DNA of 64,000 nucleotides, taken from positions 114,452,001 to 114,516,000 of the forward strand of contig OX597815.1 in NCBI GenBank assembly GCA_951406725.2. Direction: 5' to 3'. The position numbers and the translations under genes were made by a program. Source of the stretch: Octopus vulgaris. Taxonomy: Eukaryota. Shown one piece after another: positions 14,961 to 21,390 of this stretch (within the stretch, counting starts at the first letter, position 1; each line of letters begins with the position of its first letter). The notes beneath the pieces are model-generated. The model had not been told where the DNA came from, searched no databases, and was given only the letters and a program-made list of their open reading frames with translations.

Positions 14961-15204
14961 TATGTATATATAGATAATAGAAATATTAAAATTACTAAGT
15001 CTCTCTAAAAGAGATCACGGCAGCGTTCCTGGAAAATAATAGTTATCGCAATACTAATATGGCATTCTTATAAAAATAAGAATAAAGCTGTCCGCTTATT
15101 AGCTCCATGAGGCCATCGCCTTAAGTTAGCTATTTGATACACAAACTGTATCCATATAACCTTCGAACAAGGGAGGTCAGTCGCTCCACACTACTTGACC
15201 GACA

Positions 15205-15246
15205 GCTACAGACGCGTTTCGGGGTATTGCCCCTTTTCAATGTAGC
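15205..15246 (-). ncRNA. Minimal type I hammerhead ribozyme, U3:A8 core variant
   Basis: Minus strand: gcuaca UUGAAAA gggg caaua cccc GAAA cgcg UC uguagc; predicted cleavage between 15211 and 15210. Confidence 0.8.
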
Positions 15247-15256
15247 GTAGTCAGAC

Positions 15257-15273
15257 CAGTAGGTGTCGCTTCC
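15257..15273. other. 17-bp target-site duplication (left), cagtaggtgtcgcttcc
   Basis: Identical 17-mer at 20664-20680; present once per uninterrupted repeat unit. Confidence 0.92.
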
Positions 15274-15531
15274 AAAATCTTTATTATGATTATAAAAATC
15301 TTAGTACATTACAATACAAATGTACTAAGATAGTACATTACAATACAAAACATAATTACAAAAAGTTTACTTTGTTCGTTTGATATTTACATATGTTGAT
15401 TATTGATTATGATACTAGACTTTACTGTTCTCCTTTTTTTTTTAAAATTAAAAATGATTTTGGCCAGCTAGGTATATCACAGTCAGGATTCTTACCCGAC
15501 AGCCTAAGAGCCCAGAGACTATTTTCTCCCT

Positions 15532-18500
15532 TCATGATGACCAAGCAGGGTTACTCACACCCACCTTTTTTATCACATCCTTCCATCGATTCACATACTT
15601 TTTCTGTGTCAGGTTCCTCTTCTCTAAATCCATCTTGCTCTTTAGATGGTATCTGAAGTATTTTAACATACCATATCCAGATACAAAGGATCCTGACACC
15701 AAACCTTCCAATCTAGTTCTCCACACACACTCTTTCAGTACTGCCACCGTACAGTGAAAACAAGCCTCACCTTCCTTTGAGAGTCCAGCTGGCGGTATCA
15801 TCTTTATTATAGAACCAGCCGATAGCTGTACTCGTCCCAGATGCGACAACACGTGTTCTACGTAACTTATTAAGCCTGATAGCTCCTGACAATGTACAAA
15901 AGCGTGCTGGACGGTTTCATCGTCCAACCCACATCTTGGACATGTCGGTGGCACTGACATTCCATGCCTATATAACTTATCGCGAACAGGTAGAGCATTC
16001 CTATAGCACTGCCAAGTCAGGGATTTTTGGTAATTGTCCAAATACCCCGGCTTGAAAGTCTTCTTAAACAGGTCGGATAGTTGATCCTCATCGAACCCCA
16101 GAGCCTCTCTTAGGATGTCGTCATTTTTTGCCTCTACCATCCTTCTATAAAATGTCGAGGTGGTATTCCCGCAGCCGGCTTTGCCTATCTTGTGGATCAG
16201 CCAGAGTGCCTGTCGGCACTCTTTCTGCCATAAAGTCAGATTCCGTCTTTTAATGAAACCGGGTTTAAATCTCTCCATAGAGTCCGGTTGCGGGAAGAAA
16301 TTATCTGCCAGCGGACTCCACACCTTATCACCTTCCAGGTGAAACCAGAGATGTCTCAGTCTCAGCGCATGCCTGCGCATCATTAACCAAGGCATCCCCA
16401 GCCCACCCTTTAGTGGTTCCTGGCAACACACGGAGCGCCTTACAAGTGGCTTTCCTCCCTTCCACAAAAAGCGGAAAAGGAGTCGATCCAACTTGCTTAG
16501 CCACAAATCGGGGCAAGGCACGACAGTCAGGCGATAGGTGATTACAGATGCTATAAACACCTGTACCACCTCCGCCCTCCCTTTCAAGGAAAGATGCCTT
16601 CCGGACCACTCCCGAACTATGGCTTCTACCTTGGTCACTACCTCGCTCCAATTTTTCTCCGTCTGGGAGTCTGAACCAAACCAAACTCCAAGCAATTTAA
16701 CAGGACCATCTGTCCAGTGTCCAACAACACTGGACGATATCGGCTTGTTCCTCCAGGTGCCAAGGCGCAAACCAGTGGACTTGTCCTTGTTAACTTTTGC
16801 CCCAGCCACCGCTTCGTATCTTCGGAGAGCACCTTCTACACGAGTTAGTTGTGCTTCGTTGGACACGATGAAGGTGACGTCATCCGCATACGCAGAAACA
16901 GACTTACCGCATCCGATTTCATTAGGATTGCATCTCACCGTCTCCAACTCCCGCAGCAATGGCTCAAGAGCCAAAACGTACAGGAGAGGGGACAAGGGAC
17001 ATCCTTGACGAACTGAACGCTTAATCGAAAACGGTTCCGTTAAGTAACCGTTTATCTGGACTGTGGACTTGATACCGCTGTACATAGCTGATATCCACCC
17101 GCGAAAGTGAGGGCCTAGCCCAGCCGCTTCGAGAACCGTCGCCAGGTACTGATGATCTACCCTATCAAATGCTTTACTTTGGTCTAAATGGACCAATGCC
17201 CCTCCTTTGCCGGCTAATTGCCCAACCCTGTCTATAGTGTAGCGTAGAAGGTGAAGATTATCTTCGATCGACCTGCCTGGGATTGCACATGTCTGTGCCT
17301 TTCCAACAAGTTTTTCCATGACGACCTTCAACCTTTCTGCTAACACCTTGGCCAAAATCTTTAACTCTACATTAAGTAGAGTTATGGGCCTATAATTACT
17401 AATATTATCCCCCTTGCTCGGGTCTTTCTGGATCAGCGTCACAACTCCCCGGCTCACAGAACTGGGAATCCTCCCATTCTGTTGCCAGTTTGCGTAGACG
17501 CTTGCCAGTATGTCCCCGAACAAGTCCGGCATACAACAATAAAACTCATAGGGCAGACCATCCAGTCCCGGCGACTTTTCCCGGGCGCATTCAGCCAAAA
17601 CCCCTCTTACCTCCGCGGGAGTAATCGGTCCTTCACAGCGTTCCGCTCTGCGTGGCGAGAGCCGAGGCCCACCTGCTAGGAAGTTCTGTAAGTCCTCCCC
17701 TCGCTCGAGTGGATCGCCCTCCCCAAACAACCGAGCGAAATGCTGTTGAAAGACCTTCTGTATCTCCTCCTGTCCATAGATTTTGCGTCCCTGTTCGTCA
17801 GTTAAAGACTTAATAGAGGACTTTTTGCCCTTCTGACTCTCCACACGACGTGCCCATCCGGCAACATTAATACCTTTTCGTTTCACTGCACGTAGCTTAG
17901 CTCTGACTCTACACCCTTCATGCTTGGCATTGAGGTGACGGTACAAGATCGTTCTCTCTGCTAACACTCTAGATGCACAGCCAGATCCCATTGCCTCGTC
18001 TAAGTTCTTAACTAAATCGCCCTCTATTCTAGTCCTATCTAAACTTAGCTGGTTGCTAAATCCAATGGACTCCAAACGGATGGCTCTTTTGAGGGCGATC
18101 CACCATCTATTATTAATGATGGTTCCACATAATGCCCTCTGGACTAATTCCATAATCCGGTTACGGAAAGCTTCACAAGCCAAAATAGACTTGTTCATTT
18201 TCCAGTATCCGGGTCCCTGTCTATGGCATTTATCTACATGTACCTCACACGTCACTAATTTGTGATCCGTGTAAGGCACAATACAAAATTGTGGACAGCT
18301 AATGCTATTCCTATCTCGTTCTTTAACAAATACCCTATCTATATACGATCTGCGTGAGCCGTCGTTGTTACTCCACGTCCACTGTGGAATGCTCGGCTCA
18401 TCCATTCGAAACCGATCTACTAGATTAAGGCTCGTCAGTAGACCCTTGAGGCAAGGATTCCCCCTTCTATCAGACGAGCCCACACTATCTATCCGCGCAT

Positions 18501-20445: not shown

Positions 20446-20663
20446 ATTAAAATGCAAGTGACTTGTCACAAGAGACAAGATAAAGGTTAATTCCACACTG
20501 AGTTAATAGCACATATATAAAAAGAAATTTTCTACCCCGAAGGGCGAAAATTACTTTGTTCCACGAGTTAATACTCCAAAAATTGTACGTGTAAATCCAG
20601 AACAGAACGAACTAACATAACAGCTTACAGCGTAAAATAATCCGACGTAATCCAAGGAAAAAT

Positions 20664-20680
20664 CAGTAGGTGTCGCTTCC
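20664..20680. other. 17-bp target-site duplication (right)
   Basis: Identical to 15257-15273. Confidence 0.92.
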
Positions 20681-20973
20681 GACAATCTCTGTTCGAAGGT
20701 TTTATTTACCTAGTTTCGGTGGAATACATCCACTTGTTTTCAATAATAGAAATATTAAAATTACTAAGTCTCTCTAAAAGAGATCACGGCAGCGTTCCTG
20801 GAAAATAATAGTTATCGCCATACTAATATGGCATTCTTATAAAAATAAGAATAAAGCTGTCCGCTTATTAACTCCATGAGGCCATCGCCTTAAGTTAGCT
20901 ATTTGATACACAAACTGTATCCATATAACCTTCGAACAAGGGAGGTCAGTCGCTCCACACTACTTGACCGACA

Positions 20974-21015
20974 GCTACAGACGCGTTTCGGGGTATTGCC
21001 CCTTTTCAATGTAGC
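20974..21015 (-). ncRNA. Minimal type I hammerhead ribozyme, U3:A8 variant (upstream of the LINE)
   Basis: Identical to 15205-15246. Confidence 0.8.
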
Positions 21016-21046
21016 GTAGTCAGACCAATAGGTGTCGCTTCCGACA

Positions 21047-21390
21047 ATCTCTTTTAGAGAGACTTAGTAATTTTAATATTTCTATTATTGAAAACAAGTG
21101 GATGTATTCCACCGAAACTAGGTAAATAAAACCTTCGAACAGAGATTGTCGGAAGCGACACCTACTGGTCTGACTACGCTACATTGAAAAGGGGCAATAC
21201 CCCGAAACGCGTCTGTAGCTGTCGGTCAAGTAGTGTGGAGCGACTGACCTCCCTTGTTCGAAGGTTATATGGATACAGTTTGTGTATCAAATAGCTAACT
21301 TAAGGCGATGGCCTCATGGAGCTAATAAGCGGACAGCGGCTTTATTCTTATTTTTATAAGAATGCCATATTAGTATTGCGATAACTATTC
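21047..21390 (+). repeat. Inverted copy of the 362-bp repeat with an empty LINE target (21151-21167)
   Basis: Reverse complement of the unit; joined through atctct microhomology. Confidence 0.9.
21178..21219 (+). ncRNA. Minimal type I hammerhead ribozyme, U3:A8 variant (inverted copy)
   Basis: gctaca ttgaaaa gggg caata cccc gaaa cgcg tc tgtagc. Confidence 0.8.

Follow-up and report, generated by a model that had tools for sequence, protein, structure and literature searches.

The target-specific long interspersed nuclear elements (LINEs) of the Tx1 clade, such as Tx1L, Keno, Kibi, Koshi and Tx1-Mar, join an APE endonuclease, a reverse transcriptase (RT) and a zinc finger in their second open reading frame (ORF2) and occupy a fixed site in a multicopy sequence, which may be another transposon (PMC4494074). 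The same features are found in a LINE of Octopus vulgaris lodged in a 64,000-nucleotide stretch of contig OX597815.1 (assembly GCA_951406725.2, positions 114,452,001 to 114,516,000 of the forward strand; hereafter the window), where it interrupts a 362-bp tandem repeat bearing predicted hammerhead ribozymes. Tandem copies that sandwich a target-site duplication (TSD) are likewise known in the clade, there for the partner element SINEU-3, whereas the targets described for it (piggyBac, Mariner, Harbinger and long terminal repeat (LTR) elements, U2, U5, 5S, microsatellites and unspecified satellites) differ from the one seen here (PMC4494074). The accessible part of that source names no hammerhead repeat, Penelope element or U1 start site as a Tx1 target, and one target given as 'Sat' could be an unrecognised retrozyme.

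A second point of comparison is R2, which is also co-transcribed with its target, gains precision from target-derived flanks and has its co-transcript processed by a ribozyme; unlike the present LINE, R2 encodes its own 5′ ribozyme (PMC6795142), the ribozyme in the octopus being part of the target and situated 3′ of the element. The target itself resembles non-LTR retrozymes and the hammerheads in the pseudo-LTRs of Penelope-like elements, with which it shares tandem units of 150-450 bp, a type I hammerhead and a short palindromic helix III (PMC7229834, PMC4209133, PMC8557442, bioRxiv 10.64898/2026.07.22.740005), as well as the U3-A8 variant known from Schistosoma Penelope-like elements, an inverted 5′-truncated arm and (TA)n neighbours. 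In their accessible parts these sources do not describe such hammerheads as targets of a LINE. A 2026 repeat annotation of O. vulgaris reports 13 recently active L1-Tx1 families, and its main text is free of the words 'hammerhead', 'ribozyme' and 'target' (PMC13282606). A LINE targeting a hammerhead repeat or the U1 start site was not found in the literature, where a precedent could sit in Repbase, in subscription journals or in Figure 3 and the supplements of PMC4494074.

The insert in the window is a full-length LINE of 5390 bp, flanked by a 17-bp TSD that is exact at both ends and cannot be extended; these features and the two intact ORFs, advanced in a preliminary description of the stretch, were confirmed. 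Its ORF2 has an N-terminal APE endonuclease, an RT and a C-terminal zinc finger and is preceded by a separate ORF1, an organisation that places the element, as judged from its sequence, in the L1 group. The endonuclease, YADD and CCHC motifs are all kept, and nine of the ten PDB matches of the endonuclease are L1-EN or L1-EN chimeras. The TSD, the constant 3′ end and the variable 5′ truncation of its copies form the signature of target-primed insertion. In an RT tree that held no Tx1-labelled reference, the LINE groups at 100/99 with unnamed sequences and a protein from Argonauta. No Tx1-labelled reference came from homolog searches, a cluster look-up or an Atlas search either, and the named protein matches come from Octopus sinensis (73% on the ORF1 region), O. 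bimaculoides and Argonauta. The element is young and potentially active, and both ORFs are open in 7 of the 17 long copies examined.

The family is target-specific, with an unusual pattern of target switching. Its copies are inserted in sense orientation, normally with a 17-bp TSD, at a single, exactly defined site in the 362-bp repeat that precedes the predicted ribozyme cut by 63 nt. The best 20 of 38 matches to the LINE 3′ end all run into position +1 of the repeat, 17 continuing into the repeat and three into the TSD and then another LINE copy (the eight weakest of the 38 matches have no assigned locus, and four regions at those rows are covered by other stretches). An exact-pattern scan of the whole genome found 21 junctions in 15 arrays on 10 contigs, varying by at most one base, and the reversed-pattern control found none. 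Such proportions exceed the 20% of flanks that serves as the criterion of preference for a multicopy sequence (PMC4494074). Chance nesting of the LINE in the repeat was rejected: the probability per insertion is about 2e-7, as computed from some 1075 exact target units in 2.8 Gb, against 21 junctions observed at the same site. The specialisation on a ribozyme repeat that the preliminary description had suggested is thus borne out, and copies at unrelated sites, which it named as the sign of chance nesting, do not occur among the 20 best 3′-end matches.

The hammerheads were called from a motif scan, a fold and a covariation, since Rfam gave no match. Scanning both strands of the window revealed three identical 40-nt cores of type I, with the pattern (C3-G8 or U3-A8)UGA..GAAA..UH and helices I and II, all in the U3-A8 variant and with a helix III of 1 bp and the palindrome ACGCGT. 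The fold has a z of -2.96 (1/200 shuffles equally stable), and pair 23:72 of helix I is G-C in 32 of 45 cassettes, A-U in the other 13 and mismatched in none, which, the cassettes being related, probably reflects one compensatory event. The Rfam hammerhead model had no match in 13500-21400 at E <= 10 (three matches, none a hammerhead), and no hammerhead was among the 150 matches listed out of 182 in the whole window, mostly microsatellite-driven miRNA matches. The cores are best regarded as type I ribozymes with predicted cleavage. The U3-A8 variant with a palindromic loop 3 is expected to act as a dimer (PMC4209133), and a duplex of ACGCGU has a computed energy of -7.5 kcal/mol. Two of the cores lie in the same sense around the LINE, and the minus-strand piece between their cuts, 20979-15211, measures 5769 nt (362 + 5390 + 17), as had been claimed. 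The interrupted hammerhead repeat array was also correctly recognised, but it is a small one, with a main arm of about 1.9 units and a 343-bp inverted arm ending in (TA)n, and the plus-strand core in that arm had gone unlisted.

Genome-wide, the 362-bp repeat is non-coding and dispersed, with 705 + 370 exact motif matches, and its arrays consist of tandem units, often with an inverted 5′-truncated arm, bordering (TA)n. Dispersed non-coding tandem arrays of 150-450-bp units with a type I hammerhead in each are the structure of non-LTR retrozymes (PMC7229834; bioRxiv 10.64898/2026.07.22.740005), whereas tandem and inverted 5′-truncated arms inserted at microsatellites are that of non-autonomous Penelope-like elements (PMC8557442), and the repeat has both. 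The ends of its arrays fall mostly at two TATTAT sites (near positions 238 and 300), a pattern reminiscent of the two sites at which reverse transcription starts in a Penelope-like element (PMC11167929). The array in the window is abutted by a 486-bp repeat of unrelated sequence (13519-14961; 2.5 minus-strand units and an inverted arm), whose hammerhead-like motif (about 13743-13847, minus strand) combines a CUGACGA core with a palindromic helix III and a long insertion in helix II; the LINE locus L048 also has fragments of a related repeat beside it.

The presence of the LINE in 15 arrays might be explained if one or a few chance insertions had been copied along with the repeat, through Penelope-type machinery or recombination. 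Locus L047, where a LINE 3′ fragment is joined to the inverted arm via a short microhomology, looks like a fragment that the machinery of the repeat has carried along, or like the result of a later deletion; most of the youngest LINE clade is found in one repeat subtype, and the five LINE copies of an array on C2 share private variants in a mosaic pattern, as recombination would give. Truncated copies carry their own TSDs, however: L049 is 5′-truncated with its own 17-bp TSD in a repeat subtype unlike that of its closest LINE relatives, and L048 holds a second copy of 70 nt with its own shorter duplication (~10 bp). Furthermore, copies about 1% divergent are spread over five repeat subtypes, whose use follows their frequency in the genome (9/15 LINE arrays belong to the subtype making up 705/1075, or 66%, of exact units), and other repeat families obey the same positional rule. 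Array-private variants flank the LINE on both sides and recur in LINE-free monomer joins (245A in L050, 270T in L054). The truncated copies and these private variants show that the insertions in 362-bp arrays are mostly independent. Multiplication together with the repeat is highly improbable, and as the main route pure hitchhiking was rejected on the separate TSDs, the five subtypes and the positional rule.

The preliminary description also proposed that both hammerheads, acting as a cis dimer, cut a read-through RNA into a 5769-nt, possibly circular, transposition intermediate, which we consider quite doubtful. In the window the geometry fits exactly, and the upstream ribozyme is there the only same-sense partner for a 1-bp helix III that needs a dimer (PMC4209133); one LINE-monomer-LINE unit occurs in the C2 array, and retrozyme monomers circularise in other animals (PMC7229834). 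Nevertheless, the upstream same-sense hammerhead is found in only 8 of the 15 LINE-bearing arrays, and L048, L050 and L054, each with a single LINE copy and both ORFs open, have none. Array-private variants that a donor leader of 316 nt could have overwritten persist in the 5′ flanks at positions 160, 245 and 270, the C2 copies are mosaic as from recombination, and the LINEs at U1 described below need no ribozyme. With 7/15 arrays lacking the upstream ribozyme, cutting at both ends and the circle fail as a general route; a circle is possible at the window locus. The 20979-to-15211 join appears in contigs of 4/4 sequencing runs but is uninformative, any ordinary repeat dimer yielding the same join. 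The part of the proposal in which the RNA carries target sequence at both ends is plausible.

Related LINEs occupy other targets. The next nine loci (L031-L039) end outside the 362-bp repeat, one at position +1 of a U1 gene (Rfam 125 bits), while six of the remaining eight start with ATAC; full-length copies are 16/21 on the 362-bp target versus 1/9 in this ATAC group. The full-length L034 carries U1 +1 to +17 as a leader at a non-U1 site, and the same leader is present in L091, in a nested stack inside the U1 cluster. Nested broken LINE copies with U1 5′-end pieces also lie in the U1 cluster at G000:C18:48996000-49052000 (L140, L145-L150), and at C18:48969167 there is a variant U1 gene that no insertion interrupts and whose upstream is not the same. 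Older relatives, mostly 81-85% identical where long, occupy two other repeat families (19 loci examined out of 21 listed 5′-end rows; 40 of 62 candidates scored). A hammerhead-like core stands directly downstream in 11/19 of these loci, with a cut 56-67 nt from the junction, and most others share the upstream flank or TSD of the two families, L108 being without a repeat. The cores of the older repeats deviate (CCGATGA, TTGACGA), and their activity is uncertain. Between the 362-bp repeat and the two older repeats, blastn aligned only 37 bp with one and nothing with the other.

In a tree of the RT region (1800 bp, 26 copies, midpoint root) the 362-bp clade (100/99) falls within the U1/ATAC copies, with the LINEs of the older hammerhead repeats as sister clade. 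If the root is right, the lineage would have reached hammerhead repeats at least twice, or left them and returned. At the older loci L092-L110 a T-rich run follows the TSD at the LINE 5′ end, and the same run is present at the 5′ end of a partner element of about 1.6 kb (6191-7811 in the reversed locus L137; also L135, L136 and L139, and after L108 and L109). This element, with only a distant ORF1-like frame (25-35% identity), uses the target sites of the older LINEs with TSDs between and is probably a non-autonomous partner.

The choice of site could be that of an ordinary sequence-specific LINE, whose ORF2 protein reads the target DNA and was switched by a few amino-acid changes, the ribozyme being incidental to a safe multicopy site. 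In this regard, the endonuclease of Tx1L nicks hardly anything but its own target in vitro (PMC1950540), and 26 fixed amino-acid differences (12 in ORF2, 14 in ORF1) separate the U1 group from the 362-bp clade, a figure derived from only two to four U1-group copies. The older families differ from both in endonuclease segments 61-64 and 113-115, and the ATAC start of six of the eight off-target sister copies fits an intrinsic preference. However, the hairpin loop TWSNNDGSRRS, which corresponds to a specificity-related loop in L1 and Tx1L (PMC1950540), has no class-specific change across the four target classes, and the endonucleases of the U1 group and the 362-bp clade differ at four positions (23, 26, 84 and 146), none in the loop. 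The target changed between these two groups from ATACTTAC to (A/G)GAAGCGA with the loop and both segments unaltered, and direct read-out leaves unexplained why repeats beyond the reach of blastn alignment have the site at an equal distance from an upstream box. Such read-out is somewhat unlikely; a target that moves with an almost unchanged endonuclease suggests that position or RNA, and not the enzyme, determines where the LINE lands.

This box, of AGTG type, lies 53-57 bp upstream of the junction in 12/12 target upstreams and is absent from the U6 control, while the distance from junction to ribozyme cut varies over 56-67 nt. In all three repeats the outer stem of the ribozyme domain is formed by the sequence that begins at +1, as expected if +1 is the start of the RNA, and a newt hammerhead satellite is reported to use an snRNA-type RNA polymerase II promoter (as cited in PMC2220036). 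It is conceivable that a SNAPc- or TBP-like host factor sits on the box and is bound by ORF1p or ORF2p, with nicking at the start site, RNA pairing being secondary. Tethering has precedents (PMC5006619, PMC3706591), among them Dictyostelium TRE and yeast Ty3 elements at tRNA genes. As described for TRE5, TRE3 and Ty3, insertion at a fixed distance from the promoter element of a small-RNA gene occurs outside or near tRNA genes, whereas the octopus LINE is one-base precise and inside a parasitic repeat (PMC5006619). Dada-U1 DNA transposons insert specifically into U1 snRNA genes, but with a DDE transposase, a 6-bp TSD inside the gene and no RNA intermediate (PMC3706591). The constant box-to-nick distance across unrelated sequence agrees with tethering, as does the stacking of several element families at the same site. 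On the other hand, each subfamily keeps its own target, the off-target sister copies sit at ATAC-like sites unrelated to these repeats, and the U1 genes with canonical upstream in 130 kb of U1 cluster, which holds U1 genes only, are LINE-free in 14/14 cases. Tethered elements, moreover, usually scatter over a few bases (PMC3706591), against at most one base here, and we regard tethering as unlikely.

The reading that we favour, tentatively and at not far short of an even chance, combines a borrowed start-site promoter with target RNA at both LINE ends that pairs with the next target, downstream trimming being possible. The insertion site would be the transcription start of the repeat, downstream of an snRNA-like promoter, from which the LINE would be transcribed into an RNA beginning with the 17-nt TSD and running past the LINE end into the repeat. 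The downstream hammerhead, probably requiring a partner as a dimer, would trim the 3′ trailer to 63 nt; the trailer would then pair with the nicked strand of the next repeat unit, fixing the start of reverse transcription, and the leader would complete the 5′ junction. With a loosely specific endonuclease, a copy landing at a new start site would inherit that site as its target, and the upstream ribozyme and the circle would be optional by-products. Since the upstream ribozyme of the window precedes the candidate promoter, which in turn precedes the LINE, an RNA begun at this promoter would be without that ribozyme. R2 uses a restriction-like endonuclease. In that element, target-matching 3′ read-through raises the accuracy and efficiency of insertion (PMC6795142). 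Co-transcription is also said to strengthen targeting (PMC4494074). At G000:C2:73044000-73069000 (L057-L060), five LINEs lie in one array, three joined via a single TSD and one pair separated by a whole monomer; the copies being mosaic, their order cannot separate promoter-proximal from trailer-directed insertion.

Several points weigh against this favoured reading. Given the 26 fixed differences, a protein change could still be the cause of the target switch. The same-position match to the main U1 upstream, which reaches 8-9 nt in the older repeats (shuffle p 0.003-0.009, post hoc and in related families), is only 4 nt in the 362-bp repeat and not significant (p 0.86), and the GAGGCA word of the U1 and U6 upstreams is missing from the repeats, in which the AGTG box is part of a hairpin and could act in RNA instead. 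The 14 unused U1 promoters count here too, and the sole U1 gene directly preceded by a LINE has a variant upstream with 7/9 box letters. As to cleavage, minimal hammerheads cleave poorly in vitro (PMC4209133). For a Penelope-like element of Anolis, cleavage proved dispensable in vitro, and the cut site was not marked by any read ends (PMC11167929). The 237 nt that follow the LINE in L044 (repeat positions 1-237, joined to position 37) are without two variants present in most of the other monomers of the array, which suggests that uncut RNA was copied and a longer 3′ flank carried in with the LINE. The sequencing runs compared provided contigs in 4/4 cases, with no RNA starts, ends or cleavage to observe; a contig of organism B extends 30 letters past the 5′ junction, the bridging threshold being 31. 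The use of the ribozyme by the LINE is uncertain. The upstream 58 bp are missing at 8/51 LINE-free sites, a biased sample of overlapping loci too small for a test.

Table 1. Features of the LINE and its target repeat in the window.
Feature	Position	Strand	Remarks
362-bp retrozyme-like repeat, positions 1-300	14974..15273	-	TATTAT end beside TA-rich DNA
Downstream type I hammerhead (predicted)	15206..15245	-	U3-A8 core, palindromic loop 3; predicted cut after 15211, 63 nt past LINE end
TSD, 3′ copy	15257..15273	-	17 bp; repeat positions +1 to +17
LINE	15274..20663	-	3′ end AATAAAGATTTT, without poly(A) tail
LINE 3′ untranslated region	15274..15531	-	
ORF2	15532..18930	-	1132 aa from ATG at 18930; APE endonuclease, RT, C-terminal CCHC; catalytic motifs kept; Exo_endo_phos, RVT_1, zf-RVT (Pfam)
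ORF1	18955..20445	-	496 aa from ATG at 20445, 515 aa stop-to-stop; CCHC zinc knuckle; zf-CCHC (Pfam)
LINE 5′ untranslated region	20446..20663	-	
TSD, 5′ copy	20664..20680	-	17 bp; putative leader of LINE RNA, a role suggested by L034
362-bp repeat, main arm upstream of LINE	20664..21058	-	positions 347-362, then 1-362, then 1-17
Candidate promoter, -58 to -1	20681..20738	-	AGTG box at -54 in short inverted repeat; AT-rich run near -30
Upstream type I hammerhead (predicted)	20975..21014	-	identical core; predicted cut after 20980
Inverted 5′-truncated arm of 362-bp repeat	21047..21389	+	Penelope-type arrangement
Third hammerhead core (predicted)	21179..21218	+	identical core, in inverted arm
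(TA)n microsatellite	21391..21675	.	borders the array

Elsewhere in the window, a 191-aa frame on the plus strand (43325-43900) resembles an integrase fragment of an LTR retrotransposon.

Altogether, one lineage of near-identical LINEs occupies four targets of unrelated sequence, and one target class, that of ribozyme-bearing retrozyme repeats, is apparently undescribed. It is possible, though we would sooner expect it to fail than to hold, that the target of this lineage is inherited via RNA flanks and not written in the endonuclease, the LINE parasitising the start sites of ribozyme repeats and of U1, obtaining its promoter on the upstream side and, on the downstream side, a guide-like trailer cut by the ribozyme, and switching between unrelated targets by landing at a new start site. 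If true, the LINE would be retargetable by nature and would parasitise what is itself a parasite of Penelope elements, and if RNA flanks set the site, this would bear on programmable gene insertion with LINE machinery. As 7/17 long copies keep both ORFs open, the LINE can be assayed as it stands. Two questions become testable: how target specificity changes in APE-type LINEs, whether through the enzyme, a host tether or RNA pairing, and where the transcription of animal retrozymes originates and what role their weak hammerheads play.

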